Shown one piece after another: positions 4,155-61,886 of a DNA stretch of 64,000 nucleotides. Position 1 is the first letter of the stretch. Every line of letters starts with the position of its first letter. The stretch is from assembly GCA_003222305.1 (NCBI GenBank), contig QHVQ01000010.1, positions 369 to 64,368 of the forward strand, in the 5' to 3' direction. Both the position numbers and the translations under genes were made by a program. A model generated the notes under the pieces. That model made no database searches. It was given only the letters and a program-made list of their open reading frames with translations, and was not told the origin of the DNA. Source of the stretch: Acidobacteriota bacterium (lineage in GTDB: Bacteria > Acidobacteriota > Polarisedimenticolia > Gp22-AA2 > AA152).

Positions 4155-4156
4155 GG

Positions 4157-5239: not shown

Positions 5240-5249
5240 GGGAATGCCT

Positions 5250-5927: not shown

Positions 5928-5941
5928 GAGTCAATATCCGG

Positions 5942-6580: not shown

Positions 6581-6586
6581 GTCCCC

Positions 6587-28851: not shown

Positions 28852-29119
28852 AGGGAGCGCACCCCGGGACCAGTTCGGGCCGGTGGGGCCGGGCGAAAGC
28901 GAGCGGGCGCCGGAGGAAGGCATCTTAGCATGGAGTCATCGAACAACCGGGGAGCTCCCCCAAGGGGCTGCTGGCTCTCGGGAACCAAGACTCGACACTA
29001 AGTGTGGTTCCGATACGCCGACCCTCTCCCCGTCGCCGATTTGATGCGTCGGTACGAGGATCGCGTGGAATCCGGCCTTGCACACTCCACGATTCTCGCG
29101 GCTCGACGTTCAAGCAACC

Positions 29120-29148
29120 TTGATGCTTCACCGCCCCCGCGACATAAT
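29120..29148 (+). promoter_or_regulatory. candidate sigma-70 promoter (TTGATG-17-CATAAT)
   Basis: The hexamers at 29120-29125 and 29143-29148 lie in the most AT-rich patch of this gap. They fit a start at TTG 29203 for the downstream gene. Confidence 0.4.
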
Positions 29149-29202
29149 AAAACTCCCTGCGATCGAACCATAGGGGTGCATCGAGAGAGCCCGGAGGTCC
29201 CA

Positions 29203-30858: not shown

Positions 30859-30944
30859 GGTGTCCGGGCGGCGGCACGTCGACTTCTCACTGGCGGCAGC
30901 CAACGGAAAGGCCAACCAGCGATCGCCAGAACGTCAGCAGGTTT

Positions 30945-32681
30945 TCACATGGCGGCAGAGTGCACGAAAGCCGCCCCATGTGTGGAAGGGGGCTTCCCGG
31001 GCGACTCCGGCCCGGACGCGCGGGACTGCCGGCGGCACTCGGGCAGCTCGCTCCGCAGTCGGGTGGCTCGCCACGCCTCCATGTCCTGATCCGGGTAGAA
31101 GTGCTTCCAGATCTCGGCGAAGCCGCTGCGCAGCGCGTCGCGATAGGGGCTGTCGCGGCGAATCGCGAAGCCGTAGTTCAACGCATCGGGCCAGACCTCG
31201 TATTCCTGCCACAGGCGCGGTTCCGTGATCAGTCCGTGCCAGAGCGGGACATAGAAGTAGTGTGGCATCCAGATCGCGTCGGGCCGGCGCGCGAGCTCGA
31301 CCGCCGGGTCGAAACCATGGTGGGCGAACTGCGGGTCGTGCAGTGCGATGAGATCGTCGAGCGTGATCTGCGGAGCGGCCGCGCCGATTCGGCCGTGCTC
31401 CGACAGGGCGATGCGCACCCCGGGGGGAAGCGTCCGCGCGAGGCGCGACAGGTCCGCGACGGTGGACTCGTAGTCAACCTTCGACAGCAGCCCCTGCACG
31501 GGGCGCTCGTAGCAGACTGCGGGGAAGGTCGGATCGTGGGTCGCTGGAGCAGGGCGGTAGGCGGTCTCGGCGTCGCGCAAGACAGTCGGAGCGGCGGCCA
31601 CGAGCAAAAGCGCCAGCGGCCAGCGGGTGCTTATCGCGCGCAAGAGCTCGCTGGCACGGTCGCGCGCGGCCCAAAGATCGTCGATCACGATTACCGCGGC
31701 GAGGACGGCGAACGGCGTGGCCGGCACGTAGTACCGGGCGTCGTTGCCCATGATCTGGACCACGCTGAAGTAGTATGCGAACGTGAGCGCGACGGGCACC
31801 AGTAGCGCAACCAGCTGGGGAGCGGTGCGCCGGTTCAGGCCGAAGGTGATCACCAGCAGCATCGGCATCCACATCGTGAAGATCTGTCCCAGATACTCGA
31901 AAGGGTTCCACGCGTGCGCGGCCGAGTACTCGGTGAAGTAGCCGAAGCTCTTGGCGTAGAACGGCAGCGGGAGGGGATCCCCGAAGACCGCCGTCCCAAG
32001 CACCGCGTAGCCAGCGAGCGCGAGCCCGAGTCCTCCCGCCAGCTTCGCCAGCAGAGGGAGCCGCGGCCTCGGCCCCGCGAGAGCCACGGCGAGGAGTGGG
32101 GTGAGCACGGCGTACAGCCCGTCGTCGGGACGCGCGAAGATCGCCAACAGTGCCGCCCCGACGGACGCGAGGAGCGCGCGCCGGCTGCCGCTGCGCGCGA
32201 GCCAGAGAGCGGCGCCGCCGACCAGGCAGTTGGCGAACAGCGCCGACATCGCGTCCATGCCGTTCAAGGCCTGGGTGATGAAGAGGCGCTGGGGAAGGAC
32301 GAAGAGCCAGACCCCGAGCGCGACCAACCAGGGATCCTCGCGAAGCGGGCTGCGCAGCATGGACAGGGAGACCCGCGCGAGCGCGGCGAGCGCGAGCGCC
32401 GTGAACGCGAGGGAAGCGAGCGCCAGCACCCTCGCGTCGGAGAGCGGCAGGAGCGCCTCGAGCAGGGTGACGATCGCCAGATGCAGGCTGCCGGTCACCC
32501 CGAAGACCTGCTGGCCGTCGGGATTCCAGGAGTGACCGTGCCCCGCGAGGATCTGCTTCGCGTAGCGCAGGAACATGTAGGCGTCGTCGATCGAGATCGG
32601 CTGGCGCGCCCGGCGGAGCGCGTGGGCCAGCAGGGGCGCGGCGGCCGCCAGAACAGCGCCGATCGCTCGCTTGCTCCTCAT
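30945..32681 (-). CDS. polytopic GT-C-fold-like membrane protein, distant paralog of 29203..30858
   Basis: Same N-terminal signature (IDDAYMFLRYA...GHGHSWNPDG...VTGSLH), many TM helices and a soluble C-terminal domain. Markedly higher G+C than neighbours. Confidence 0.5.
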   Translation of the reverse strand: MRSKRAIGAVLAAAAPLLAHALRRARQPISIDDAYMFLRYAKQILAGHGHSWNPDGQQVFGVTGSLHLAIVTLLEALLPLSDARVLALASLAFTALALAALARVSLSMLRSPLREDPWLVALGVWLFVLPQRLFITQALNGMDAMSALFANCLVGGAALWLARSGSRRALLASVGAALLAIFARPDDGLYAVLTPLLAVALAGPRPRLPLLAKLAGGLGLALAGYAVLGTAVFGDPLPLPFYAKSFGYFTEYSAAHAWNPFEYLGQIFTMWMPMLLVITFGLNRRTAPQLVALLVPVALTFAYYFSVVQIMGNDARYYVPATPFAVLAAVIVIDDLWAARDRASELLRAISTRWPLALLLVAAAPTVLRDAETAYRPAPATHDPTFPAVCYERPVQGLLSKVDYESTVADLSRLARTLPPGVRIALSEHGRIGAAAPQITLDDLIALHDPQFAHHGFDPAVELARRPDAIWMPHYFYVPLWHGLITEPRLWQEYEVWPDALNYGFAIRRDSPYRDALRSGFAEIWKHFYPDQDMEAWRATRLRSELPECRRQSRASGPESPGKPPSTHGAAFVHSAAM

Positions 32682-34061: not shown

Positions 34062-37000
34062 GTGCGCCCCGCCCAACCCAGCCATTCGCACCTGCCGATT
34101 CTTTGCCTGGCCCTTCTCGTCCTCTCTTTCTCACCCCTGAAAGCTCAGGGCGATATCCCAACCTGGCAACCGCCCAAGACCGGCCTCGGTTTCGACGTGG
34201 ATCTGGACCGGCCCCCCGCCGAGCGCCCCGGGCCGATTCTCTCCCGTGAAGTCCAGTCGCGCGGTGCGCAGCCCCTCTACGTTCGACTCCTTTTCTCCTG
34301 GAGGGCCTTGGAGACTGAGCGAGGAACGATACGGTTCGAGGAGCTGGAAAGCGAAGTGACCCGTTTTCGGGACGCGGGCTTTGAAGTCATTCTGGTCCCG
34401 AGAGGAGGGAACGAGCTCTACGGCTCTTCCCGGCTGCCGGCACCTGGGGAGGCGGAGCCCTTGGCTGCGTGGCGCATTTTTCTGCGCCGTCTGGCGGAGC
34501 GGTTCAAGGGGAGGGTAAGGTTTTATGAGATCGGCGATGCCATGGACGCCCCGGACGCCCTGCCGGAGGGGGCCGGAGCACGAGAGTACGCTTTCCTCCT
34601 GAAGAACGCTGCCGTGGAGCTGCGTGGTGCCGATCCCGACGTGCTGATCGTCACAGGATCCGTTGCGGCTCGGGCCCTCGATTTTCTCGAGAAGGTGTTT
34701 CAAGAGGACGTGGCCGCCTACATCGATGCGGTGGCCCTCAGAGGTGAAGCCGGGATCGACCCCGGTGACACCGCCGATCGTGCCGTGAGTCTCGTGCTGC
34801 AGCATGATCCGTCGGCGTCGGTCTGGATCGTCGGCCAGCCGCTCCCGGCGCTTCCCGTCCCGGCAAGTTTGCCTCAGACCGCTGCGACGGAGGTCACGCC
34901 CCCCCCGCCGGATACGTCTCAACCGGCTGGGGCCATGATCCGGACCACGGCCTCTGTCCTGTCGGCGGGTGCCCACTTGGTGCTATTCGATCTCCCGCCG
35001 GATCCCTCCGGCGCTCCAGCCCTGGGAAACGTCTTGGTCTTGCTCCGTCGGCTCTTTCTCCCGAGCCTGGGACCGTCACCGGAGGGGGTGGCACGGTTGC
35101 GTTTGCTCTCCCGCCCGGGTGGCACCGAGCTCCCCTTCGCGGCCTGGCGATTCTTCGATGCCTCCACTTTCCAAGTGCTTCTGGTATACGCGTCCCCGCC
35201 CGGATCCTCGGAGACGGCCGATCTGGTTCTGGACACCTCCGACGTGACCGGCGCCGTGGTGGACGACCTTCTGGCCAACACCGAGAAGAAGGTCGCGTCC
35301 CTGGCTCCCGACGCTTCCGCCGGCATGACCCGGGTGGAGGTGCCGCTGGCAGAGTCTCCTTTGATCCTTCGGTACCAACGCTTTGCCACCCCTGGATACC
35401 TGAAGGGTCCGGAGTCAGCGCACGTGAAGGGAGCACGGGAGCTCTCGGCCGAGGAGATCATCGCACGCCACCAGGAATTCCAGGCGGACCAGGACCAGCG
35501 GCTGAAAACCGTAATGGCCGCCGGCCGCATCAGCTACCACTACACGGTGGCGACCGCGCGCATCAGCGTCGACGTGACGACGCTCAATAATTTCTACTGG
35601 GACCGGGCCGTGGGTGCCGAGTGGGAGGAGAAGGAATTCTACTTCAACGGAGTGCGCTGGACGGGGAAGAAGCCCCCTGATCTGCCTCTCATCCAGCCCG
35701 AGAAGGTCGTGGTCCTGCCGCTGAACATCAACCTGAACAAGGATTACACCTACAGGCTTTTGGGGCGGGACAGCGTGGAAGGACGGGACTGCTACCTGCT
35801 GGAATTCAGCCCGGTGGCCGGCAAGGAACGTCTCTACCACGGAAAAGTGTGGATTGATCGAAAGAGCTTCGCGCGAGTCCGGATCTCTTCGGTGCAGACC
35901 GGGTTGACGCCCCCCGTCACCAGTAACGACGAACGGGACACCTACGGCCCGGCTCCCGGAGCGGGAGAGAGTCCGCTGTGGGTGCTCCAGCGTATCGATG
36001 GGCAGCAGCGCCACACGCTCGGGGGAGTGAACCTGATCGTCATGCGGGAAGTGGAATTCACCGATTTCGTCCTCAACTCGCCCGATTTCGAGGAGAAGCG
36101 CCGTGCAGCGTACGCCTCCGACCATGCCATGCTCCGCGACACCGACAAGGGGTTTCGCTATCTGGACCGCACCCCCGATGGGAGCAGGACGGTACGGGAG
36201 GGTGTGACTCGCAGCACCACGCTGGGCGCGGCCGGGGTCTTCTATGAACAAAACCTGGATTCCCCGGTGCCGCTGGCGGGGATCGACTACTTCAATTTCA
36301 ACTTCAAGAACACCCGAAGTCAGGTCAACCTCTTCTTCGCGGGAGCCCTGCTGCAGGGCACTTTCCAGGATCCGCAGGTGGCCGGCACGAAGCTCGATGC
36401 CGGGGTCAGCGTTCTGGGCGTGGCCTTCAGCACCACGGACCGGTATTACCTGAGCGACCAAAAGCTCGAGGAGGTCGACACCCGGCAGCGAGCTCAGGAA
36501 ATCTCGGCGAATATCGGGTATCCCCTCGGGAATTTCTTCAAAGTCAAGGGGCTGGCCTCGCTGGATTACGTGCAGTTTGGACACGCTGAGAAAGCCGCCG
36601 ACTCGTTCCGGGCACCCTCGGATACCACGGAGCTCACGCTGGGAGCGCTGGGGCAGTTCGATCGCCGGGGATGGACCCTCCAGGCTCGCGCGGAACAGAC
36701 GAAGCGAGGCACGTGGGAGCCCTGGGGAGACACGGACCCGCTCTCACCGGCCCTGGGAAGCCGCCTCGTGGACTTTGATCCTGAGGATCGGCAGTACCGC
36801 CACTACCGGGGACAGGTGTCCAAACAGATCATCCTTCCCTATTTTCAAAAGGTGATTCTCCAAGGTCAGTACCTGACCGGGAGCCACCTGGACCGCTTCA
36901 GCAAATTCCAGTTCGGTTTCTTCGATACGAGGGTACACGGATTCTCCGGGAGCGGCGTCCGATTCGATCGCGGCTATACCGCCTCCGCGTCTTACAACTT

Positions 37001-37247
37001 CAACCTGGCCAGCGTCGTCCGCTTCGATGCAACGCTGGATTGGGCCAGGATTCGAAACGACGATCTGGGTAGCCTGGACCCGAGCTTGGCGGGCTATCAG
37101 GGTTTCGCCGGCGTCGGGCTGGCCGGCAACTTCATGGGGCCGTGGAACACGGTCATCCAATTCGACTACGGTATCGCAGTGCAGTCGGACATTCCGGGGT
37201 TGAAGGGAGACCAGGAGATCGAGTTCGTCCTGCTGAAATTCTTCTAG
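34062..37247 (+). CDS. 1061-aa outer-membrane chimera: signal peptide, glycoside-hydrolase-like TIM-barrel region, LolA-like domain, C-terminal beta-barrel
   Basis: GTG start with GGGAGGA upstream. Signal LPILCLALLVLSFSPLKAQG, then a clan-A GH-like stretch (WRALE...FYEIGDAMD...LIVTGS). The middle LolA-like domain reads YHYTV...YRLLGRDSVEGRDCYLLEFSP...HGKVWIDRKSFARV. The C-terminus has alternating beta-strand sequence ending EFVLLKFF. Confidence 0.6.
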   Translation: MRPAQPSHSHLPILCLALLVLSFSPLKAQGDIPTWQPPKTGLGFDVDLDRPPAERPGPILSREVQSRGAQPLYVRLLFSWRALETERGTIRFEELESEVTRFRDAGFEVILVPRGGNELYGSSRLPAPGEAEPLAAWRIFLRRLAERFKGRVRFYEIGDAMDAPDALPEGAGAREYAFLLKNAAVELRGADPDVLIVTGSVAARALDFLEKVFQEDVAAYIDAVALRGEAGIDPGDTADRAVSLVLQHDPSASVWIVGQPLPALPVPASLPQTAATEVTPPPPDTSQPAGAMIRTTASVLSAGAHLVLFDLPPDPSGAPALGNVLVLLRRLFLPSLGPSPEGVARLRLLSRPGGTELPFAAWRFFDASTFQVLLVYASPPGSSETADLVLDTSDVTGAVVDDLLANTEKKVASLAPDASAGMTRVEVPLAESPLILRYQRFATPGYLKGPESAHVKGARELSAEEIIARHQEFQADQDQRLKTVMAAGRISYHYTVATARISVDVTTLNNFYWDRAVGAEWEEKEFYFNGVRWTGKKPPDLPLIQPEKVVVLPLNINLNKDYTYRLLGRDSVEGRDCYLLEFSPVAGKERLYHGKVWIDRKSFARVRISSVQTGLTPPVTSNDERDTYGPAPGAGESPLWVLQRIDGQQRHTLGGVNLIVMREVEFTDFVLNSPDFEEKRRAAYASDHAMLRDTDKGFRYLDRTPDGSRTVREGVTRSTTLGAAGVFYEQNLDSPVPLAGIDYFNFNFKNTRSQVNLFFAGALLQGTFQDPQVAGTKLDAGVSVLGVAFSTTDRYYLSDQKLEEVDTRQRAQEISANIGYPLGNFFKVKGLASLDYVQFGHAEKAADSFRAPSDTTELTLGALGQFDRRGWTLQARAEQTKRGTWEPWGDTDPLSPALGSRLVDFDPEDRQYRHYRGQVSKQIILPYFQKVILQGQYLTGSHLDRFSKFQFGFFDTRVHGFSGSGVRFDRGYTASASYNFNLASVVRFDATLDWARIRNDDLGSLDPSLAGYQGFAGVGLAGNFMGPWNTVIQFDYGIAVQSDIPGLKGDQEIEFVLLKFF

Positions 37248-49642: not shown

Positions 49643-50701
49643 GTGGGTGCGAAGTTCTGGGCCATGATCCTGGCGGGGGGGAAGGGAGAGCGATTTTGGC
49701 CGCTCTCTCGGGAGAAGCGCCCGAAGCCGCTACTCGACCTGGGATCGGGCCGCTCGCTCTTATGGGAAACTCTCCGGCGCGCACGGCGCGTCGTCGGAGC
49801 ATCGCGCATTCGGGTAGTCGCCGGCGGCCATCTGGCAGGCGCCATCCGAGGCGAGATGGGCCGCGTTGGACGTGCCGCGGTCCTGGTGGAGCCCGCCCCG
49901 CGGAACACCGGGCCGGCCGCCCTGCTCGCATCACGCTGGGTCTGGGAGCGGGATCCGGACGGAACGGTGCTGCTCCTCCCTTCCGATCATCGGGTGGTTG
50001 GGGATGACGCTTTTCGGCGCGCCGTAGAAGGCGCTCGGCGGCTTTCCGAGAAGGGTTTCCTGGTGACTTTCGGGGTCCGACCCGCAGGGCCAGCACCCGA
50101 CTACGGATACATCGTGCGCGGCGAGCGAATCGGCTTAGCCAGCCATCGCGTGGCACGATTCGTTGAGAAGCCCTTGCCCTCCACTGCGCGCTCGCTGATT
50201 GGTCGGCACCGGGCGCTGTGGAATTCCGGGATGTTCGTCTGGAGGGCGGATTGCTTCCTGGAAGAGGCGGCTCGTTGCGAACCCGCTTTCCGGCGATGGC
50301 TGCGGGCCTGCGACAAGGGTGGCAGCGCCGGAACATTGGCCCGGCGAGCCTTCACTCGCCTGCCCAGCACGCCTGTAGACCGGGCCGTACTGGAGCGATC
50401 GGACAGGGTGGCAGTGGTGGAGGCGAGATTCAAATGGTCGGATCTTGGGACCTGGTCGGCGCTCTACGATATGGGTCGAAGGGACCGTGCGGGTAATGTG
50501 GGATGGGGGAGGTGGGTGTGCGTAAGTTCCCGGGGCAATCTGACATTTTCCCCGGACGGACTGACCGTGCTATTCGGAGTGAGCAATTTTCTGGTGGCGC
50601 GGGTCGGGGAGGTGGTACTGGTTTGTCCACGGCCTGAGGCAGCTTCCCTGCGTGACCTGCTGGCGGAGCTGCGCCGGAGAGGCTTGGGTGGGTACCTCTG
50701 A
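49643..50701 (+). CDS. mannose-1-phosphate guanylyltransferase-like nucleotidyltransferase
   Basis: ILAGGKGERFWPLSR...PK, EP..RNT.PA, PSDH, FG..P..P...YGYI, WNSGMF.W, W.DLG.W. The start is GTG 49643 or ATG 49664. Confidence 0.75.
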   Translation: MGAKFWAMILAGGKGERFWPLSREKRPKPLLDLGSGRSLLWETLRRARRVVGASRIRVVAGGHLAGAIRGEMGRVGRAAVLVEPAPRNTGPAALLASRWVWERDPDGTVLLLPSDHRVVGDDAFRRAVEGARRLSEKGFLVTFGVRPAGPAPDYGYIVRGERIGLASHRVARFVEKPLPSTARSLIGRHRALWNSGMFVWRADCFLEEAARCEPAFRRWLRACDKGGSAGTLARRAFTRLPSTPVDRAVLERSDRVAVVEARFKWSDLGTWSALYDMGRRDRAGNVGWGRWVCVSSRGNLTFSPDGLTVLFGVSNFLVARVGEVVLVCPRPEAASLRDLLAELRRRGLGGYL

Positions 50702-52310
50702 GGCCGTTTCTTTATCCGGCGATTCCCCCACCCGATCCCATCCGGCGGAAGCGGTTCAGCGCGTGGCAGCGCGGGTGGTGGAGGGAGGAGTCTGGGCCCT
50801 CTTGCTCTTCACCCCTCTGGTGCTGGGAGCGGTCTCTGAGAGGGACACCGCGATCATGGAAGGCGGGTGCTTCACCCTCCTCATCGTGGCGTGGTGGGCG
50901 CGGCTCAGGCGGCAAGGCTCGCGTCTCCCAAGGTGGGTGAGCTGGCCCGCCGGCTTCTTTTGTCTTTGGACACTCTTCCAAATGGTGCCTCTGCCCACGT
51001 CGGTGTTGCGCGTTTTGAGTCCGGGAACGCATGCGGCCTATTCCCGGTTTCTACCCGGATACGCCTCCCACGGGGGAGGGACGGACCTGCAGGCGTGGCT
51101 CCTCATGAGGAAGGGAGCCCGTTCTGGGGGACTGTCTCCTCGGGAGGGCCAGGTCACGGGGCTTGAAGGGGAGATTCTTGTTCGACCCGCCGCGCGATCT
51201 ATCTCCTGGTACCCCTGGAGAACGCTGCGATGGCTCTGCCGCTTTCTCGCCTATTGGGCCTGCTTTCACGTGGTGGTCCGCCACCTACCGGAAAGGGCGT
51301 TGGAAAAGAGGTTACCTTGGTTGGTCCTGGTGCTGGGATTCGGTATTGCTCTTCTGGGAATCGTCCAGCGCTACACCTGGAACGGAAAGATTCTCTGGTT
51401 CATCCCCGTTTATCAAGGGTACCCCTTCGGCCCCTGGGTGAACCGCAACCATTTCTCGGGGTATCTCGAGATGGCCTTACCTCAGGCATGTTCGGTGCTG
51501 ACTCGCGAAGCGGGTCTGCACTCCGGGCACCGCCGCCGGCGCCGTTCGGTGCGGACCACTACGCCGCGCTTGGCCCTGATCGCTTTCCTGCTGGTGCCGA
51601 TGGTCGCCGCCCTGTTCATGGCTGGCTCGAGGGGTGGCCTCTTTTCGCTGGCCTTGACCGCGTGCCTTTACGCCTTTCTGCAAGGCTACCGTGGGCTTGC
51701 ACGGCGCTCCAGCCGCTGGGTCCGGGTGGTTCTCCCTCTGGTCCCCTTGCTCTGCTGTGTGGTTGCAATCGGCCTTTACATCCACTTCGCCGGGGGTGCG
51801 TCCCCGCAGGAGTCGAGAGTTGAGCCGTCGTTGGGGACGCGGCTGCGAGCCTGGAAGGGGGTCTTGGACATGATCGCAGCCAATCCCCTTACGGGCACGG
51901 GGCTGGGCACGTTCTCGCTGGCTTATCCCTTCTATAAAACTTATGGCGAGACGGACATTTGGGCTCAGGCGCACAATGACTATCTCCAGCTCTTTGCCGA
52001 GACAGGGCTGGTGGGGTTTTCACTCTTCCTCGGGGGTCTCATCTTTCTGCTTCGCCGAAGAGTTCTGCCCTGCCTTTCCGAGCCCTGGCGACGGCAGACT
52101 CCCGTGGCTCTCGGGGCCTGCCTTGGCCTCGTGACTCTCCTGCTCCATGCCTTGGTAGATTTCAACTTCCAGATTCCTTCCAACGGACTGCTCTTTGTCC
52201 TTTTGGGTGGACTGCTCGTGGCCCGGGGGCCCAGCAGCGGACAGCCGACGGGGATCTCGGGCCGACATCCCGGGCGAGAGCTGTCGAGATCCGCTGAAGT
52301 CCTTGAATGA
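50652..52310 (+). CDS. O-antigen ligase/polymerase family (Wzy_C domain) membrane protein
   Basis: At least 10 TM helices. Signature loop GSRGG...TGTGLGTF...AHNDYLQLFAETGLVGF. The start is uncertain (GTG 50652 or GTG 50688). Confidence 0.7.
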   Translation: MTCWRSCAGEAWVGTSEAVSLSGDSPTRSHPAEAVQRVAARVVEGGVWALLLFTPLVLGAVSERDTAIMEGGCFTLLIVAWWARLRRQGSRLPRWVSWPAGFFCLWTLFQMVPLPTSVLRVLSPGTHAAYSRFLPGYASHGGGTDLQAWLLMRKGARSGGLSPREGQVTGLEGEILVRPAARSISWYPWRTLRWLCRFLAYWACFHVVVRHLPERALEKRLPWLVLVLGFGIALLGIVQRYTWNGKILWFIPVYQGYPFGPWVNRNHFSGYLEMALPQACSVLTREAGLHSGHRRRRRSVRTTTPRLALIAFLLVPMVAALFMAGSRGGLFSLALTACLYAFLQGYRGLARRSSRWVRVVLPLVPLLCCVVAIGLYIHFAGGASPQESRVEPSLGTRLRAWKGVLDMIAANPLTGTGLGTFSLAYPFYKTYGETDIWAQAHNDYLQLFAETGLVGFSLFLGGLIFLLRRRVLPCLSEPWRRQTPVALGACLGLVTLLLHALVDFNFQIPSNGLLFVLLGGLLVARGPSSGQPTGISGRHPGRELSRSAEVLE

Positions 52311-53736: not shown

Positions 53737-55356
53737 ATGATCGTTTTGGGAATCAGCGGCGGCATCCGGTCGGGACACCACGACGCGGCCGCGGTGTTGT
53801 ACCGTGACGGCAATCTGGTCGCCGCCGCCGAAGAGGAGCGCTTCACCCGAATCAAGCACTCCGAAGGAAGACTCCCGGAGAGCGCGGTCCGGTTCTGCCT
53901 GAGCCAGGCCCGCATCGACATCCGGGACGTGGACGCACTGGCGTACGGCTATGCTACCGTGCCGGGGATGGACAGGCGATTGAAGGATTATTTCAATCTG
54001 CGATTCGGACACTGTCCTGAGGTCCATCTCATTCGCCACTACCTGGCCCACGCTGCTAGCGCTTACCGGGTGTCGGGGTTTGCCGACGCCATGATCCTGA
54101 GCGCGGACGTCTCGGGGGACTCGATCTCGACACTCCTCTCCCACGGGAAGGGATCCGAGATCCGTATAGTGAAGTCCATACCCCGACCGAACTCCCTCGG
54201 AATCTTTTACTCTATGCTCACCCAAATCCTGGGATTTCAACGCGACAATGACGAGTACAAGGTCATGGGACTCGCTTCCTACGGAAGGAACGAGGTGGAC
54301 CTCTCCTGGCTCCTGCAATACGGAGGGGGAGAGTACCGTCTCAACTACGAGGAATACATGGTCCCCGTGGGGCCCGCTCAACCCTTTCCTTCGAAGCAGG
54401 AGGGGATTTACTCTCAGCGGCTCGTGGAGCGATTGGGTCGGCCGAGACTCAAAGACGAGCCCCTTACGCAGAGGCACATGGATCTGGCTCACAGCGTCCA
54501 GAAGACCCTCGAGCGGGCCGTCACCGATCTGGTGACCTGGCTGCACGGGGAGACCGGGAGCCGGAATCTCTGTATCGCGGGAGGGGTGGGCCTGAACTGC
54601 GTCATGAACCAGAGGCTGCTGGCGCTGCCGTTCGTGGATCAGGTCTACGTACAGCCCGCTGCCAGTGACGCGGGAACCGCTATCGGCGCCTCGCTGGAGG
54701 TGTTGGCGGAAAGGGGAGTGCAGCCGGAGGTGATGGAGCATGTCTATACGGGGCCCGCCTTCGCGAACGAGGAGATCCAGACGGCGCTGGACAGCTACAA
54801 GGTGCCCTACCGGAAGGAGGAGGACGTCTGCCGTTTCGCTGCGGAAAAGCTCGCGGAGGGCGCCATCGTGGCCTGGTTCCAGGGGGCCATGGAATTCGGG
54901 CCGCGGGCCCTCGGAAATCGCTCCATCCTGGGGGATCCCCGAGACCCCGCCATGAAGGATCGCATCAATGCGACCATAAAGTTCCGCGAGGATTTCCGCC
55001 CCTTTGCGCCGGCGGTGCTTGAAGAGCGCGTGGAAGAATACTTCTACGACGGTGTGAAGTCCCCCTTCATGACCCTCACCTTCGACGTTCGGAAGGAGAA
55101 ACAGCGCGAGATCGCCAGCATTACCCACGTGGACGGCACGGCCCGAATCCAGACCGTGGGGCATAAGACCAATCCCCGATTCCATCGACTCATCTCGGAG
55201 TTCGCCCGGATTACGGGCATCCCCATGGTGATTAACACCAGCTTCAACGTGAAGGGCCAGCCCATCGTCTGCACGCCTCGAGAAGCGGTCTCCACCTTTT
55301 TCATGACCGGGATGGATTACCTGGTCCTCGGGGACTATGTCCTCTCTAAGCGCTGA
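53737..55356 (+). CDS. carbamoyltransferase (NodU/CmcH family)
   Basis: ILGISGG...HDAAA.L..DG.LVAAAEEERFTR.KH, GGVGLNCV.N, F.G.MEFGPRALGNRSILGDPR, FRPFAP, HVDGTAR.QTV, P.V.NTSFN..G.PIV. Confidence 0.85.
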   Translation: MIVLGISGGIRSGHHDAAAVLYRDGNLVAAAEEERFTRIKHSEGRLPESAVRFCLSQARIDIRDVDALAYGYATVPGMDRRLKDYFNLRFGHCPEVHLIRHYLAHAASAYRVSGFADAMILSADVSGDSISTLLSHGKGSEIRIVKSIPRPNSLGIFYSMLTQILGFQRDNDEYKVMGLASYGRNEVDLSWLLQYGGGEYRLNYEEYMVPVGPAQPFPSKQEGIYSQRLVERLGRPRLKDEPLTQRHMDLAHSVQKTLERAVTDLVTWLHGETGSRNLCIAGGVGLNCVMNQRLLALPFVDQVYVQPAASDAGTAIGASLEVLAERGVQPEVMEHVYTGPAFANEEIQTALDSYKVPYRKEEDVCRFAAEKLAEGAIVAWFQGAMEFGPRALGNRSILGDPRDPAMKDRINATIKFREDFRPFAPAVLEERVEEYFYDGVKSPFMTLTFDVRKEKQREIASITHVDGTARIQTVGHKTNPRFHRLISEFARITGIPMVINTSFNVKGQPIVCTPREAVSTFFMTGMDYLVLGDYVLSKR

Positions 55357-55924
55357 GGAGCGCGATCGAACGGCGTGGGAGGAGCTCTTTCAGGATGCCG
55401 GGAGGGTCTTGGGGACATCGCAACCCGCCGCCCGACATCTCCTGGTCGGGCTCGTCAGGGAACCAGCGATTGGAGCCGCATTCCTCTTCCGCCTCTCCTC
55501 GCGATTCCATCGGAGAGGGTGGCCTTTTCTGAGCACCCTCGCAACTCGATTGAATCTGGCGTTCCACGGCTGCCAGATCCACTGTCGGGCCCGCATCGGT
55601 CCCGGTCTTCTGCTTCCCCATCCCTGTGGTGTCGTCGTGGGTTCGGGGGTCGAGGTGGGTTCGGAGGCGACCCTTTTTCAAAACGTCACCCTGGGGACCC
55701 GGAGCTTTCTAGGGGGGGATTACCCCCGCCTCGGAAACCAGGTGATGGTTTTCCCCAATTCCGTGGTGATCGGTTCCGTGCGCCTTGGTGACGGATGTCG
55801 GGTGGGCGCCGGGTCGGTGGTCCTCCATGATGTCCCCGAGGGAGTCACAGTGGCGGGGGCGCCGGCATCGCCTCTCGGGCGCTCCGCGGGCCAGACCTTG
55901 AGCGAGTTCTCTCGAGGACAGTGA
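55337..55924 (+). CDS. hexapeptide-repeat O-acetyltransferase (CysE-like)
   Basis: IGPGLLLPHPCGVVVG, then left-handed beta-helix repeats to VTVAGAPA. 20-nt overlap with the carbamoyltransferase gene. Confidence 0.7.
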   Translation: MSSLSAEERDRTAWEELFQDAGRVLGTSQPAARHLLVGLVREPAIGAAFLFRLSSRFHRRGWPFLSTLATRLNLAFHGCQIHCRARIGPGLLLPHPCGVVVGSGVEVGSEATLFQNVTLGTRSFLGGDYPRLGNQVMVFPNSVVIGSVRLGDGCRVGAGSVVLHDVPEGVTVAGAPASPLGRSAGQTLSEFSRGQ

Positions 55925-57057
55925 TCATGCTTGAAGAACGCCGCCCGCTGAGCATCCTTTTCTACGTCGAAGGGCTCGACATCGGGGGCGCCAATCAGAC
56001 CACCGTGACCACGGCCGTCGCCATGAGCAAGCGGGGTCACGCGGTCTGCTTCGCGGCCCAGGATGGTCCGTTGAGGGAACGGCTCGAAGCCGCAGGAATT
56101 CCTCACTTCGCAGTGGATACGGATGTCAGACATCCGAATCTCGCGGTGGCCCGCCGACTCGGGGGAATCCTCGATCGGGAACGCGTCGAGATCGCTTGTG
56201 CGAATGGATGGGATTGTTTCGCGGACATGCTCTTGGCCACCATCCCCCGGGGGATTCCGTGCGTGCCCACGTTTCCCTCCATCTACCCCGAGTACCACCA
56301 TCCCCGGGTCGAGAAGGCCATCGTGTTCAGTGGAGAGTACCGGGAGGCTCTGATCCGCGATTACGGGTGGAAGCCCGAGTCGTTGGAGATGCTGGTCAGC
56401 CGTATCGACACCCAGAGATTTCGCCCTAACCTGGACGGAAGCGAGCTGCGAGCGCGCTGGGGCCTGGCGCCGGACTCTCCGATGGTCTTCATGGGGTGCC
56501 GCCAGGATGCGATGAAGATCGAGGGAATCCGATTCCTGCTGGACGCCGTCCCTTCGATGGCCGACCGGTGCCCCCGGGCCCGCGTCGTCCTGGCGGGAGA
56601 CGGGGCGCTCGCCGGCGAAGTGGCGGAGCGGGCGGCGGCTCTCAACGAAACCATCGGACATCCTTATATCGTCCTGGCTGGAAAGGTTCTGGAAATGCAG
56701 AAGGCTTTCGCCGCCGCCGACGTGGTGGTGGGCAACGGGGCGCGGTCCGGCATGGAGGGGCTGGCCTGCGGCCGTCCGGTGGCCTCGGTGGGTCCGTCGG
56801 GATTCGCCGGAATCATGACCCCTGTGAACATAGAGGACTTCGCCTATTACAACTTCGACAAGGGGAGAGTCTATGACGGGACGACCCGGAAGGATCCGGT
56901 CGCGCTGGCGGACGCCGTCGCGGGGCTCCTGGCCGACCCAGAGCTTCGCAAGTCTCTTGGGGAATTCGGCCGCAAGTTTTCCCAGGAGCGACTGTCGGTG
57001 GACGCCGGCGCCGCCCGGCTCGAGGAGATCCTACGTTCCCAGCAGCCGCTGGGCTGG
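55921..57057 (+). other. GT4 glycosyltransferase module (codons 1-378 of the fused ORF)
   Basis: ILFYVEGLDIGGANQTTV, VLAGDG, VVGNGARSGMEGLACGRPV, LGEFGRKFSQERLSVD. Confidence 0.6.
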
Positions 57058-60000
57058 ATGAAAAAACTTGGGCTGGCCAAAGAGCTGGCCGCAGGAGTCA
57101 TTTCCTTCGGCTGGTTCTCCGGGCGCCGGAAGGTCAGGAAGATCCTCCTGGGTTCCGCTGGCCCTTCCCGTGCGGTGTTCGACAGTCCGTCGAAGGGGCC
57201 GGGGTTCCTGAGGAACAGCGCCACCACCTTTCTCACGGCAGTGTTTGGTCTTGGCGTAGGGGTCGTCCAGGCAGCCGTGACGGCGCGCATTCTCCGCCCC
57301 GAAGGGAAGGGAGAGCTGGCCGCTGTTCTCATCCTCCCGCAGCTGCTCGCTACGCTGGCGCCCCTGGGCATCAATTGGGCCTCCACCTACCACCTCGGGC
57401 GGAAAACCTTCGATCGGGAAGTGCTGATTCGTACCGTCATCACGGCCCTCATCCTGCTGAGCGCCACCGGCATGCTGGGCTGCCTGGTGGCAGGCCATTT
57501 CCTCCGCGACAGCATCCTCCAGGGAGTCTCCAGGACCGCTTTTTTCATGGCGGTTCTGACCATTCCCACCCAGATCTGCCTCCTCTTCCTTACCGGAATT
57601 TTCCGAGGTGAGATGCGGATCGCTGAAGCCAACCTGATGGATGTCTGCCGCACGGTCCTGATGTTCGCTTTGATCCTTGGGGGACTCGTGGTCCTGAAGC
57701 TGGGGGTAAGGGGTGTGGTGCTGGGGCAGCTCTTGGGTGAAGGGCTGGTGGCCATCCTGGCCTTTCGGCGGCTCGGGGGGATCCCGGCCGTGCCCTTGCT
57801 TCGCTGGGACGTTTTGCGACGCCTCATGGGATTCGGAGTCCAGATCTACAGCTTCTCCATCCTGCTTTATCTGAACTATCGGTTCGACCTGTTCCTGGTG
57901 CGCAGCCGACTGGACCTTGTCCAGACGGGTCTCTATGCTACCGCCGTGAGCCTCGCGGAAATCCTCTGGCTCTTACCCAATGCCATGGGAAGCGTGCTCT
58001 TCCCCAGCGTGGCCCAAACCTCGGGAGGAGACAGGGACCAGCTGACCCTGGCCGTCTGCCGGAGGAGTTTTTGGATAATGTTGATCTTGTGCGCCCTGTT
58101 GGCTGCCGGGCGCCAGCTGGCGCTGAAGATCTTTTTCGGTGCAAGCTTCGTGGCGGCGTCACCTGCCCTGCTGGCTCTCCTGCCGGGCATCTTGGCCATG
58201 TCGATCCAGCTGGTGCTCGGCTCCGCACTGTCGGGACGCGGGCGCCCACTTCCCGTGACCGTGGGTGCCGCGCTTGCGTTCGTGGTCAACGTCGTCCTGA
58301 ATCTCCTCTGGATTCCTCGTTACGGAATCGTCGGTGCTTCGCTCGCTTCCAGCGTTTCCTATGCCCTGGTGACCTTGGTCGTGATCGTGGCCTGCGGCGG
58401 GAGGACCTTGCAAAGCTGGCGGGATTGCTGGGCCGTTTTCGGGAGGCGCTGGCATGAGGGGATGGGGAAAGCCAGGCTTCCGTGGCCATTTCATGGACAG
58501 GAGCTGAGTGTGTGCGGCATCGCGGGAATCCTCTCTCTTACGGGCCCCCTCCCCCCCGGCGCCCAGCATCGACTCCGGAACGCCGCGGCTTCCCTGCACC
58601 ATCGCGGTCCCGACGACGAAGGGTTCTATCTTCAAGGAGAAATGGGGCTAGCTTTCCGCCGTCTTTCCATCCTGGACCTCGCGGGAGGCCACCAGCCCAT
58701 GGGTAATGAGGACGGATCGATCCAGGTGATTTTCAATGGCGAGATTTACAACTACCGGGAACTGACGCGGGATCTGATAAGCCGCGGGCACCAGTTCCGG
58801 ACTCGCTCCGACACCGAGGTGTTAGTCCACCTCTACGAAGAAAAGGGGCCGGACCTCGTGCACGAACTGAGGGGAATGTTTGCCTTCGCTCTGTGGGATC
58901 TTCGAAAGCGCTCCCTGCTGCTGGCGCGGGATCGACTGGGAATCAAGCCCCTTTTCTACCGAAAGCACGCCGAGGAGCTGATTTTCGCCTCGGAGATCAA
59001 GGGCATTCTGGCGACCTTGCCCGCCTCCGCAAGGGAAATGAACGCCTCGAGTCTGGGGCGGTACCTGGTCTTCGGCTACCTGTCGGGTGATCGCAGCTTC
59101 TTTCGAGGAATCCAGAAGCTCCCGCCCGGACACGTGCTGGTGTGCCGGGACGGAGTGGTGGTCCTGCGAAGGTACTGGTCACTTCCGCCTGTGGATCCAG
59201 CGCCCCCCTTCTCACGCGAGGGGGCGGTGTGCACTCTCAGGGATCTTCTCGAGGAGTCGGTCCGGCTTCGCTTGATCAGCGACGTGCCCCTGGGAGCCTT
59301 CCTGAGCGGCGGCATCGATTCGAGCTGTGTGGTGTCTATGATGCGGCGCGTCTCACACGATCCCGTCCGGACCTTCTCCATCGGCTTCGGAGGTGAATCG
59401 TCCAGTGAGCTGCCGGTGTCGCGGAGGGTCGCATCGACGCTGCGAACCGACCATCATGAGCTGGTGGCCAACCCCGATGCCGTCTCCCTAGTGGATCAAG
59501 TGGTCGCTTCGTTCGACGAGCCCTTTGGAGATTCTTCGGCCATCCCCACTTTCCTCGTGTCGCGGCTGGCCCGATCCGAAGTTACGGTCGCCCTCTCGGG
59601 GGACGGAGGGGACGAATTGTTCTGCGGCTACACACGCTACAGGAACTTGAGGCGACTGGAATCTTTGCGTCCGCTGCCGGCATTCTTCCGGAGGGGAATT
59701 CGCGGGGCTCTGCTGCGATGGGGCCCGCAGTCCTTTTGGGCGCTGCGGGCTGCGGCGGCCCTGCGGCGCAGCCTGAAGTCTTTTCCCCGGGACTACCTCG
59801 ATTCGCTCAATCTTCTCCTGGACCCCCGAGTGGCGCCGGCGCTCGCACCGGAGGTTCTCCCCTCGGAAGACGCGGTGGACTGGGAGATTTCTGTGGACGG
59901 TGGCGGAGCGGATCCGGTGGAGGGTGCCCAGCGACTGGATCTGTACCATTATTTGCCGGAGGACATCCTGGCCAAAGTAGATCGGATGAGCATGGCGTGC

Positions 60001-60465
60001 TCGCTCGAAGCCAGGGTGCCTCTCCTGGACCATCGGCTGGTAGAGTTCGTGACCTCCCTGCCCCCCGCCTGGAAGCAGAAGGGTGGAAGGCCGAAGTCGC
60101 TTCTGCTGGAGGCCGCCGGACAGGAGCTTCCCCATCAAGTTTGGAACAGGCCGAAACAAGGGTTCTCCATGCCGCTTGGCAACTGGTTCAGGGGGGAGCT
60201 CGGAGATTACTTGCGGGACGTGCTGCTCGGGACTAAGGCGAGACAGCGCGGAATCTGGAACTCGGCCGGCCTGGAATCCATGATGGAGGCCCATCAGCGC
60301 GGAATCTGGGATCTCTCCGAACAGCTTTGGAGCTTCCTGATCCTCGAGCTGTGGAACCGGCGCTACCTGGATGGCGCTCAATCCCTGCCAGCGGTCTCGC
60401 CGGGGGGCCGTGGGGATGCCGGGTGGCCGCTTCGCGACCCCGTAGGCGAAGGGACGGTGCGGTGA
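55921..60465 (+). CDS. uninterrupted 1514-codon ORF encoding three modules: GT4 glycosyltransferase, MOP/Wzx-type polysaccharide flippase, AsnB-type glutamine amidotransferase
   Basis: The ORF track gives one open frame. The GTG 55921 start forms a GTGA overlap with the upstream stop (ATG 55927 is the alternative). All three modules are recognisable in this one frame, and no in-frame stop occurs at either junction. Confidence 0.6.
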   Translation: MIMLEERRPLSILFYVEGLDIGGANQTTVTTAVAMSKRGHAVCFAAQDGPLRERLEAAGIPHFAVDTDVRHPNLAVARRLGGILDRERVEIACANGWDCFADMLLATIPRGIPCVPTFPSIYPEYHHPRVEKAIVFSGEYREALIRDYGWKPESLEMLVSRIDTQRFRPNLDGSELRARWGLAPDSPMVFMGCRQDAMKIEGIRFLLDAVPSMADRCPRARVVLAGDGALAGEVAERAAALNETIGHPYIVLAGKVLEMQKAFAAADVVVGNGARSGMEGLACGRPVASVGPSGFAGIMTPVNIEDFAYYNFDKGRVYDGTTRKDPVALADAVAGLLADPELRKSLGEFGRKFSQERLSVDAGAARLEEILRSQQPLGWMKKLGLAKELAAGVISFGWFSGRRKVRKILLGSAGPSRAVFDSPSKGPGFLRNSATTFLTAVFGLGVGVVQAAVTARILRPEGKGELAAVLILPQLLATLAPLGINWASTYHLGRKTFDREVLIRTVITALILLSATGMLGCLVAGHFLRDSILQGVSRTAFFMAVLTIPTQICLLFLTGIFRGEMRIAEANLMDVCRTVLMFALILGGLVVLKLGVRGVVLGQLLGEGLVAILAFRRLGGIPAVPLLRWDVLRRLMGFGVQIYSFSILLYLNYRFDLFLVRSRLDLVQTGLYATAVSLAEILWLLPNAMGSVLFPSVAQTSGGDRDQLTLAVCRRSFWIMLILCALLAAGRQLALKIFFGASFVAASPALLALLPGILAMSIQLVLGSALSGRGRPLPVTVGAALAFVVNVVLNLLWIPRYGIVGASLASSVSYALVTLVVIVACGGRTLQSWRDCWAVFGRRWHEGMGKARLPWPFHGQELSVCGIAGILSLTGPLPPGAQHRLRNAAASLHHRGPDDEGFYLQGEMGLAFRRLSILDLAGGHQPMGNEDGSIQVIFNGEIYNYRELTRDLISRGHQFRTRSDTEVLVHLYEEKGPDLVHELRGMFAFALWDLRKRSLLLARDRLGIKPLFYRKHAEELIFASEIKGILATLPASAREMNASSLGRYLVFGYLSGDRSFFRGIQKLPPGHVLVCRDGVVVLRRYWSLPPVDPAPPFSREGAVCTLRDLLEESVRLRLISDVPLGAFLSGGIDSSCVVSMMRRVSHDPVRTFSIGFGGESSSELPVSRRVASTLRTDHHELVANPDAVSLVDQVVASFDEPFGDSSAIPTFLVSRLARSEVTVALSGDGGDELFCGYTRYRNLRRLESLRPLPAFFRRGIRGALLRWGPQSFWALRAAAALRRSLKSFPRDYLDSLNLLLDPRVAPALAPEVLPSEDAVDWEISVDGGGADPVEGAQRLDLYHYLPEDILAKVDRMSMACSLEARVPLLDHRLVEFVTSLPPAWKQKGGRPKSLLLEAAGQELPHQVWNRPKQGFSMPLGNWFRGELGDYLRDVLLGTKARQRGIWNSAGLESMMEAHQRGIWDLSEQLWSFLILELWNRRYLDGAQSLPAVSPGGRGDAGWPLRDPVGEGTVR
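57058..58509 (+). other. MOP-superfamily flippase module (codons 379-863), beginning at an in-frame ATG
   Basis: FLRNSATTFLTAVFGLGVGVVQAAVTARILRPEGKGELAAV, followed by about 12 TM helices to GIVGASLASSVSYALVTLVVIV. Confidence 0.6.
58510..60465 (+). CDS. asparagine synthase (glutamine-hydrolysing) family amidotransferase, candidate independent translation unit inside the fused ORF
   Basis: AGGAG (58499-58503) lies 6 nt before GTG 58510, followed by CGIAGIL (M-C-G-I-A-G Ntn nucleophile context). Motifs: HRGPDDEG, RLSILD, NGEIYNY, SDTEVL, FLSGGIDSS PP-loop. At 651 aa it is a normal AsnB length. Confidence 0.6.
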   Translation: MCGIAGILSLTGPLPPGAQHRLRNAAASLHHRGPDDEGFYLQGEMGLAFRRLSILDLAGGHQPMGNEDGSIQVIFNGEIYNYRELTRDLISRGHQFRTRSDTEVLVHLYEEKGPDLVHELRGMFAFALWDLRKRSLLLARDRLGIKPLFYRKHAEELIFASEIKGILATLPASAREMNASSLGRYLVFGYLSGDRSFFRGIQKLPPGHVLVCRDGVVVLRRYWSLPPVDPAPPFSREGAVCTLRDLLEESVRLRLISDVPLGAFLSGGIDSSCVVSMMRRVSHDPVRTFSIGFGGESSSELPVSRRVASTLRTDHHELVANPDAVSLVDQVVASFDEPFGDSSAIPTFLVSRLARSEVTVALSGDGGDELFCGYTRYRNLRRLESLRPLPAFFRRGIRGALLRWGPQSFWALRAAAALRRSLKSFPRDYLDSLNLLLDPRVAPALAPEVLPSEDAVDWEISVDGGGADPVEGAQRLDLYHYLPEDILAKVDRMSMACSLEARVPLLDHRLVEFVTSLPPAWKQKGGRPKSLLLEAAGQELPHQVWNRPKQGFSMPLGNWFRGELGDYLRDVLLGTKARQRGIWNSAGLESMMEAHQRGIWDLSEQLWSFLILELWNRRYLDGAQSLPAVSPGGRGDAGWPLRDPVGEGTVR

Positions 60466-61886
60466 GACGCCAAGTGCGAGCGCTGGTGGACATCCGACGG
60501 TGGAGCTGGGAGACCCGGGTCTCGACAGCGGCGGTGTCCGCCCTCACGCTCCTGGTGGCGCTATGGCTTTACCTGGGTATCCCAATGTTGTGGTTGCCGG
60601 CACTCGCGGCGGCGAGCGCGCTGACGATCTTCACGCTCCACCAACCGGTCTTCGGGGTGCTGGCGGTGGTGGCCGCGCAATACTTGCCCATTGCCGTGGG
60701 GCAGCTCACCCTATTCCAATTGCTCGGCGGAATGGTGACGATTCTCTGTCTCATCTTCTACGCAGTCAATCGTCGTGGGCTCGTGCTGTCCAATATGATT
60801 CCCCCCATCCTGGCCTTCACTCTTCTGGCGCTGCAGTCCCTTTCCTTCACGCACGATGCTGATTTGACGCAATACCTGATCAGGAAGTTGATCTTCAACG
60901 CACTCTTCTGCCTGCTTCTGGTCAACGTCATCGACGACCTTCAGAAGTTCCGGTGGCTCTTGTGGGTCGTCGTCGGCTTAGGGATGATCAACTCTCTGGT
61001 CGCGACGGTTCAGTTCTGGCTGGGGCATGCCAGAATAGAAGAGTTCAGCGGAGTCTTCAGGGCCAAGGGGCTGTTGGAGAACGAAAACCAGCTGGGGGAG
61101 ATCACGGCGCTTTGCCTGATGGTCCCCCTCCAGCTCTTTCTGGCCGGAGACCGGCGCTGGAAGAGAGGCGCGGGACTGCTGATCTGCGTGTTGCTCTCCT
61201 TCGGCCTCGTCACCTCCATTTCGCGGGGTGCCGTTTTAGCGGTCCTTGCCGGGCTCGGCTACGTGGCCCTGCGCGCCAGTCATCACCGAAGGCGACTGCT
61301 GGTCTTCGCAGTCCTCGTCGCCGCAGCCTTTCCGTTCCTTCCGGAGGCGTTTTTCGCCCGCTTCAGAAACCTTAATCAGGAGATGCGGGGGACTGTCGCC
61401 CTCTCGCGACGCGTGGGTCTGACCGAACGAGGGTACTTCAACAAGGCCGGGATTAGAATTTGGAAGGCGCATCCCATCCTCGGCGTCGGGCTGGGGAACT
61501 ACGGCTTCTATTACATCCTTCCCGAATTCAACCCGGGGCGGCGGGGAAGCACGAAACTACCTCCCCACAACCTCTATGTCCAAGCGCTGGCGGAGACGGG
61601 GATCGTCGGCTTCCTTGTCCTTTGCTGGTGGATTTTCCTGGCGGGATTGAACTACTGGAATGCACAGAGGAACTGGGAGGGAAGCCGCATGGATCTGGCC
61701 TATATTCGGGCCTGCGAGGCCCTGACCATCGTGGCCCTGGTGATGTATTTTTCTGGGGGAGCTATCATGTACACGAACTTCGCTATGGTGCTGACGCTGA
61801 GCTATGTCTGCAGGCGCTGCGCCGGGAGGGTTCAGGCCGCTGCCGCCCTTCCCGGACCTGCCCCGGGAACGGTGGTCCCCGCGTGA
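60462..61886 (+). CDS. second O-antigen ligase/polymerase family (Wzy_C domain) membrane protein
   Basis: GTG 60462 start in a GTGA overlap with the previous stop. Many TM helices. SISRGA...GVGLGNY...PHNLYVQALAETGIVGF. Confidence 0.7.
   Translation: MRRQVRALVDIRRWSWETRVSTAAVSALTLLVALWLYLGIPMLWLPALAAASALTIFTLHQPVFGVLAVVAAQYLPIAVGQLTLFQLLGGMVTILCLIFYAVNRRGLVLSNMIPPILAFTLLALQSLSFTHDADLTQYLIRKLIFNALFCLLLVNVIDDLQKFRWLLWVVVGLGMINSLVATVQFWLGHARIEEFSGVFRAKGLLENENQLGEITALCLMVPLQLFLAGDRRWKRGAGLLICVLLSFGLVTSISRGAVLAVLAGLGYVALRASHHRRRLLVFAVLVAAAFPFLPEAFFARFRNLNQEMRGTVALSRRVGLTERGYFNKAGIRIWKAHPILGVGLGNYGFYYILPEFNPGRRGSTKLPPHNLYVQALAETGIVGFLVLCWWIFLAGLNYWNAQRNWEGSRMDLAYIRACEALTIVALVMYFSGGAIMYTNFAMVLTLSYVCRRCAGRVQAAAALPGPAPGTVVPA

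Follow-up and report, generated by a model that had tools for sequence, protein, structure and literature searches.

Here, we analyzed a 64,000-nucleotide (nt) stretch of an Acidobacteriota genome assembly (GenBank GCA_003222305.1, contig QHVQ01000010.1, positions 369 to 64,368 of the forward strand; hereafter, the window), in which a single 4.5-kb open reading frame (ORF; 55921..60465, + strand, as are all features described below) runs through a GT4-type glycosyltransferase, a Wzx-type flippase of the MOP superfamily and an AsnB-like amidotransferase. We conclude with high confidence that this ORF consists of a conserved GT4-flippase gene joined to asnB by a private, frameshifting 43-nt deletion that is found in one assembly only. 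The position very probably holds two genes, not three and not one, namely, a gene for an 857-aa GT4-Wzx protein and a separate asnB/WbpS-like gene. Whether the deletion is a genuine allele or an artefact, the triple fusion is private and unselected.

Translation and Pfam searches confirmed the observation from which an earlier sequence-only reading of this DNA had started, that is, the presence of GT4, MOP flippase and AsnB modules in one stop-free frame. The ORF spans 1514 codons, with no internal stop in either the ORF listing or the translation, and the modules map to aa 21-352 (GT4), aa 430-747 (Polysacc_synt/Polysacc_synt_3) and aa 897-1479 (GATase_7/GATase_6 and Asn_synthase). The GTG at 55921 is a mechanical start; near-identical contigs call ATG 55927, which gives a 1512-aa product. 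Both internal junctions had been taken for former gene boundaries, an interpretation that stands for junction 2 and fails for junction 1, where the linker is continuous in 15 homologues. As judged from the comparisons with relatives laid out below, junction 1 is an old in-frame GT4-flippase fusion without a lesion, junction 2 is a lesion, and neither of them contains a mutated stop codon.

The evidence on junction 1 comes from a whole-ORF homology search, which yielded 15 homologues of 850-868 aa (59-69% identity, covering 53-56% of the query; clusters drawn from JGI, ENA, NCBI and Logan). All of these proteins combine GT4 and Polysacc_synt domains, and all 15 align unbroken through the junction, at about 57058. 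The K/R-rich linker that connects the two domains (57037..57207; 11 K/R) carries the motif WELGRxVxSFLWFAGRRKxRRxLLGSPG, which is kept throughout the 15 homologues. Because all of them are single proteins aligned through this conserved linker, junction 1 is not a lost stop. The ATG within an ATGA tetranucleotide at 57058 is indeed present in the sequence, as had been pointed out, and was considered as a former start codon; it was rejected as such, because conservation extends over the linker but not to this Met. Furthermore, a single GT4-flippase gene is called in the near-identical contigs L005 and L006, as well as in two Acidobacteriota metagenome-assembled genomes (MAGs). The near-identical alleles were recovered by exact-protein look-ups and not by the full-length homology search: queried with the 1514-aa ORF, the word-indexed search missed an 857-aa protein on record that is 99% identical, and near-identical partial hits may escape this tool when the query is long and has several domains.

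This domain layout is rare. Among 1.84 billion representatives, P0012 is the sole 50%-identity cluster that spans both halves, the other top hits being stand-alone flippases or stand-alone GT4 proteins. A syntenic locus in the contig L012 (JGI 3300009147, 4001-7427) comprises Wzy_C, TPR, carbamoyltransferase, flippase and AsnB genes, lacks both the GT4 domain and the hexapeptide transferase, and encodes a flippase of 469 aa (62% identical) that stands alone, which suggests that the GT4 module was gained or lost as a unit. In an unrelated lineage, the 819-aa protein P0136 displays the reverse arrangement, with a Polysacc_synt flippase at the N-terminus and a GT4 domain at the C-terminus, so that flippase-GT4 fusions appear to have arisen at least twice. 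We found no description of natural Wzx-glycosyltransferase fusions in full-text searches of the literature, which is limited evidence of absence; the residual novelty of the locus is, thus, a clade-restricted GT4-Wzx fusion for which no published description was found.

The in-frame part of the GT4-Wzx gene (ATG 55927 to 58392) corresponds to residues 1-822 of the 857-aa protein. Its N-terminal domain (55981..56976), a predicted cytoplasmic glycosyltransferase of the GT-B fold, matches Glyco_trans_1_4 (34.2 bits, cut-off 27) and Glyco_transf_4 (29.9 bits, cut-off 28.5), with Glycos_transf_1 (18.2 bits) falling below its cut-off of 26.4. In the EX7E region, a motif that we placed by eye, the family-invariant GNGARSGxE provides the second Glu and has Gly/Asn at the expected position of the first. 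The membrane part (57208..58392), the last helix of which ends at 58392, matches Polysacc_synt_3 (PF13440, 50.5 bits, cut-off 23) and Polysacc_synt (PF01943, 42.9 bits, cut-off 28.2), and its hydropathy profile includes about 12 hydrophobic segments, preceded by the K/R-rich linker. In the AlphaFold model of the homologue P0001 (mean pLDDT 81.5), a GT-B domain is followed by a long linker helix, a disordered stretch and a helical bundle. In Foldseek searches, the N-terminal half of this model retrieved PimB', MshA, HepE, BshA and PglA (PimB', MshA, HepE and PglA at E about 1e-12), and the C-terminal half retrieved the lipid III flippase WzxE (9g9p_A; TM-score 0.83, normalised to the target; rmsd 3.5) and MurJ.

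Junction 2 is of an altogether different kind. The ORF frame agrees with the homologues only through ...VTLVVIVA, at 58392. From this position on, three-frame translation shows that the +2 frame, relative to the upstream part, reads LRREDLAKLAGLLGRFREALA and ends at TGA 58455-58457, matching the homologue tails LRKEDLxRLAGAFGRLKEAVA with their stop; hence, 58392..58457 represents a relic of the flippase C-terminal tail together with its native stop codon. Exact look-up of the carbamoyltransferase and AsnB proteins identified six independent metagenome contigs, the aligned parts of which share 98.2-99.8% identity with the window. Three of these, L006, L010 and L011 (99.1-99.8% identical to the window), contain 43 extra nt, TATCTACGAATCACCGGCTCCAGGCTCCGCGACGCCCTGGTCC, at 58392/58393, encoding YLRITGSRLRDALV plus 1 nt. 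In L006, the 857-aa GT4-flippase gene is followed by a TGA stop, a 52-nt spacer and a separate 651-aa asnB gene; the window and L006 proteins are identical in 820 of 822 residues, and their alignment stops at A822, that is, at 58392. The deletion junction itself lies at 58391..58393, its breakpoint being ambiguous within a 3-nt microhomology, CCT.

Since the missing segment is of 3n+1 length, the frame is shifted, the native tail and its unmutated TGA are bypassed, and translation enters asnB. The site of deletion, 58393, is 117 nt upstream of the asnB start at 58510, and the intervening read-through segment (58393..58509), CGGRTLQSWRDCWAVFGRRWHEGMGKARLPWPFHGQELS, comprises 39 codons of off-frame tail and spacer and has no homologue. 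Peptides across the junctions of the fused ORF are VIVA-CGGR (VIVACGGR), ELSV-CGIAG and HGQELSVCGIAGILSLTGPLPPGAQHR. In this G+C-rich DNA, 24-74% of the 39-codon off-frame windows within the ORF are free of stops, so that a read-through of this length is not unlikely once the frame has shifted. The native intergenic spacer (58458..58509, 52 nt) includes a Shine-Dalgarno sequence, AGGAG, at 58499-58503, 6 nt before the GTG; its DNA is identical in L006, L010, L011 and the compared part of L005, and the gene calls end 52 nt before the asnB start. A scan of the 52-nt spacer for promoters and terminators found none. More generally, asnB is a separate gene in L001-L006 and L010-L012, and in syntenic loci it is separated from the flippase gene by spacers of 19 nt (L001), 70 nt (L002), 31 nt (L003), 70 nt (L004) and 70 nt (L012).

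The closest contig, L005, shares 99.84% identity with the window across 14,001 nt and differs from it by substitutions and by a sole indel, located at the deletion site. There, L005 (9250-9300, corresponding to 58387-58393 of the window) has a different, in-frame deletion of 42 nt, which takes 14 residues out of the conserved tail and results in an 843-aa product. Imperfect repeats, GTGGCC-T and CTGGTCC-T, lie on either side of the deleted segment; retention of the left copy would produce the 43-nt frameshifting deletion of the window, and retention of the right copy the 42-nt in-frame deletion of L005. A check for repeats and hairpins at the deletion detected the 3-nt microhomology, the imperfect 6-7-nt repeats and a small hairpin beside the right breakpoint, and nothing more. 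Among strains with 99.1-99.8% identity to the window, three alleles are found side by side: the intact one, the one lacking 42 nt and the one lacking 43 nt. Another contig of this group, L011 (ENA ERZ28573600; 2744-3921), lacks 20 nt and then 1 nt in the downstream Wzy_C gene (window 60809-60828 and 61274), which is called as three fragments of 122, 172 and 96+ aa, a second case of frameshifting deletions in the locus within the same population. The pentanucleotide CCTGG (CCWGG) occurs beside the breakpoint at both deletion sites (window 58388-58393/L006 5205-5212, and window 60806-60813), possibly by chance.

The downstream gene is an asnB-like gene for a glutamine-dependent amidotransferase of 651 aa (58510..60465). 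The GTG at 58510, to which the sequence-only reading had drawn attention along with the preceding AGGAG, proved to be a real gene start. In L010 and L011, a protein identical to this 651-aa product is called from a gene of its own. This product begins with M-C-G-I-A-G, aligns from M1-C2 with PDB 7ylz and shares its start with the relatives, so that the predicted catalytic Cys is residue 2. In L005 (9303-11306), AsnB is called as a 667-aa protein from a start located 48 nt upstream, in the spacer; the 651-aa call appears to be right because the Met-Cys start is conserved. The enzyme scores above the Pfam cut-offs (PF13537, 158.5 bits; PF00733, 340.2 bits) and passes the cut-off of NCBIfam TIGR01536, glutamine-hydrolysing asparagine synthase (475.7 bits; cut-off 267.1). 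The best NCBIfam match is to TIGR03108 (XrtA/PEP-CTERM amidotransferase, eps_aminotran_1; 596.9 bits), which is below the cut-off of 816.9 and not an equivalog.

In class II amidotransferases, the nucleophile is the N-terminal Cys, which is exposed once the initiator Met is removed. The product of GTG 58510 has such a Cys, and the 1514-aa read-through product does not: there, it is residue 865 counted from GTG 55921, or residue 863 of the 1512-aa product that starts at ATG 55927. Because the nucleophile would be internal, the glutaminase of the tethered enzyme should be inactive unless the protein is processed, and because AGGAG and GTG 58510 are intact, free AsnB should still be made. Natural AsnB fusions appear to fit the need for an N-terminal Cys: in P0016, AsnB is the N-terminal part, and in P0017, where it is C-terminal, the GATase match is only partial. 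The AsnB-like enzyme probably amidates a uronic acid; two UDP-sugar dehydrogenases are encoded in the locus. WbpS/WbqG-type amidotransferases convert uronic acids of surface glycans to uronamides (PMC7468200).

The stop-free ORF had previously been explained either by the loss of two stop codons or by assembly errors at both junctions, and a covalent sugar-adding, amidating and flipping machine had been contemplated as its product. An evolved and selected transferase-flippase-amidotransferase polyprotein that couples sugar addition, amidation and flipping would be in keeping with an ORF that stays open over 1514 codons, with a topology that permits a cytoplasmic C-terminal domain and with the invariable adjacency of the flippase and asnB genes in related loci. 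However, the three-domain architecture occurs in no homologue, and a stop and a spacer separate the genes in every relative, down to the contigs with 99.1-99.8% identity to the window; moreover, the joining segment is composed of off-frame tail and intergenic spacer, and the amidotransferase would have its catalytic Cys in an internal position. Given that the orthologues possess both a 43-nt indel and a stop at junction 2, the kind of finding that the sequence-only reading had itself named as refuting its proposal, we consider a polyprotein of this kind highly improbable and do not retain the covalent three-enzyme machine as an evolved architecture. Merger of three genes through two point-mutated stops (such as a TGA changed to TGG at 57055 and another stop lost near 58505) is even less plausible, to the point of being negligible. 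Its attraction lies in the TGG that precedes ATG 57058 and in the +1-frame TGA at 58505-58507, which is present as reported; against it, the GT4-flippase junction is in frame, with a linker conserved in the 15 homologues and the near-identical contigs, and the native second stop at 58455-58457 is present and unmutated. The loss of two stop codons is, thus, contradicted at both junctions, by a conserved fusion at the first and an intact native stop at the second. Two candidates were also dismissed in this context: an apparent RD...W...G match to the flippase tail, which would have suggested a point-mutated stop at junction 2, is coincidental, the true tail being in the +2 frame, and the +1-frame TGA at 58505 is not a former stop, the native one being 58455-58457, in the +2 frame. 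As for assembly errors, none needs to be invoked at junction 1, where there is no lesion, whereas at junction 2 an error and a true lesion are both live options.

We lean towards the 43-nt deletion being a real strain-level allele that originated by a microhomology-mediated event at a deletion-prone site, a preference of modest strength that can be decided only with sequencing reads. The competing explanation, to which we assign an appreciable, if smaller, chance, is that the gap is an artefact of assembly, consensus building or polishing where strains differ, and that the organism carries the intact or the 42-nt-deleted allele. Indeed, the 43-nt allele is private to one assembly, to be compared with three contigs that are intact at the DNA level, further protein fragments with intact tails and a single 42-nt allele; it disrupts a conserved tail; and the site is heterogeneous among co-occurring strains, with one contig (L007) terminating exactly there, at 58392. 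An artefact would also be compatible with the absence of the allele from the JGI contigs and the protein collection. Specifically, the exact 43-nt-deletion junction was not found in JGI metagenome contigs, and a shared downstream 31-mer matched only the contig of L006; the exact 1512-aa product is not on record according to a look-up; and the off-frame junction peptide has no match in the protein collection, in which P0172 and P0174 are further intact-tail fragments. Conversely, k-mer assemblers seldom create a 43-nt deletion with just 3 nt of microhomology, and apart from this site, all differences between the window and L005 over 14 kb are substitutions. The imperfect repeats are also the site of a second, different deletion, which shows that the segment is truly deletion-prone, and the frameshifting deletions of L011 in the neighbouring Wzy gene demonstrate that loss-of-function alleles occur elsewhere in the locus.

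Several considerations detract from the interpretation of the joined ORF as the unselected product of a frameshift. A biological origin of the 43-nt deletion, which we hold somewhat probable, is argued from assemblies. L007 ends one base short of the clean graph branch expected between the intact and the 43-nt-deleted alleles, so that its terminus is suggestive of polymorphism only. The fused product may be stable or partly active, and the cytoplasmic C-terminus of a 12-helix Wzx makes its topology feasible. AsnB synthetase domains are, in principle, able to work with free ammonia, and some Ntn amidotransferases, such as Bacillus subtilis PurF, remove their propeptide themselves.

Putting these results together, we arrive at the following picture. 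A cytoplasmic GT-B glycosyltransferase, a basic linker and a 12-helix MOP flippase are fused clade-wide, and asnB is a separate gene that follows after a 52-nt spacer. In this assembly, the 43-nt (3n+1) deletion, immediately after the last transmembrane helix, at 58392/58393, shifts the frame and leaves the native tail and the TGA at 58455-58457 out of frame. A ribosome would pass through 39 codons devoid of meaning and continue into asnB in its proper frame, hence the 1514-codon ORF. If this allele is present in cells, the flippase would keep all its helices, lose the conserved cytoplasmic tail and gain 39 residues followed by a 651-aa cytoplasmic AsnB domain; the glutaminase of the tethered AsnB would be dead, and free AsnB would be supplied from the internal start. 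The probable role of the GT4 domain is to attach a late sugar to the lipid-linked repeat unit and to pass the unit to its own flippase; from the family match and the Wzy_C genes in the locus, we infer that the flippase domain translocates lipid-linked oligosaccharides. It appears unlikely that the window contains a real natural soil allele with a stable 1512-aa product, that is, a newborn gene fusion that tethers an amidotransferase at the membrane while the free enzyme is still made. If this were the case, such a protein, together with the GT4-Wzx and the reverse Wzx-GT4 fusions, would be an argument for a physical coupling between flipping and the late cytoplasmic steps.

With neighbours of the kind usual for Wzx/Wzy-dependent pathways, the locus is an ordinary surface-polysaccharide cluster of the Wzx/Wzy type from a soil bacterium. 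The named relatives closest to this bacterium are Acidobacteriota MAGs, including Ca. Polarisedimenticolia. On the sugar side, the neighbours comprise two UDP-sugar dehydrogenases, two epimerases/dehydratases, a GT2 glycosyltransferase and a nucleotidyltransferase; the others include two Wzy_C proteins, a TPR protein, a carbamoyltransferase, a hexapeptide acyltransferase and a polysaccharide deacetylase. Directly upstream of the GT4-flippase gene is the gene for the hexapeptide-repeat acyltransferase (55337..55924; 195 aa, Pfam Hexapep), the stop of which is 2 nt ahead of ATG 55927; the same order of the two genes is observed in L001 and L005-L007. Directly downstream of asnB is the gene for a 474-aa membrane protein of the Wzy_C family (60462..61886, Pfam Wzy_C), which is also called in L005 and L010 and the start of which overlaps the asnB stop (GTGA). 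Together with the other Wzy_C-family gene (50652-52310), it is conserved in related loci, and the two products may be a polymerase and a ligase or two polymerases. Farther upstream, long ORFs at 29002-31805 and 34062-37247 (618 aa and 316 aa without a Pfam match; 1061 aa with a sub-cut-off LolA_like match) precede a hydantoinase A/B pair and an MlaE/MlaF/MlaD-like transporter.

For the purpose of annotation, 55927-60465 should be split into a GT4-wzx gene with a frameshift and, behind it, a normal asnB-like gene. Three alleles at a single site, along with the frameshifts in the Wzy gene of L011, illustrate how surface-polysaccharide genes decay or vary between the strains of a soil population. 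How Wzx recognizes completed repeat units, and whether it forms complexes with cytoplasmic glycosyltransferases, are still debated, and a natural covalent pair of a glycosyltransferase and a flippase is a tractable construct for studies of structure and specificity.

The modules of the locus can be compared with known systems. With the Wzx flippases of the MOP superfamily (Escherichia coli WzxE, 9g9p; MurJ, 7wax), the membrane part shares the Polysacc_synt models, about 12 helices, the fold and the setting in a Wzx/Wzy-type locus with two Wzy_C genes; unlike these flippases, its family carries a covalent N-terminal GT4 domain and a conserved basic linker, and the copy in the window loses the conserved C-terminal tail through the frameshift. 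The GT-B fold and the GT4 Pfam models are shared with the retaining GT4 glycosyltransferases PimB', MshA, HepE, BshA, PglA and WaaG, from which the domain of the window differs in being divergent, in the apparent replacement of the first Glu of EX7E (by eye) and in being fused to a flippase. The amidotransferase resembles WbpS/WbqG-type enzymes (TIGR03108) in the combination of class II GATase and Asn_synthase domains, the Met-Cys N-terminus and the location in a polysaccharide locus with two UDP-sugar dehydrogenases, although it scores below the cut-off of that family and, in the window, follows an open reading frame and not a stop. Finally, the reverse fusion in P0136 unites the same two domain families in one polypeptide; given that the order of the domains is opposite and that the flippase parts are only 31% identical, it is best regarded as the product of an independent fusion event.

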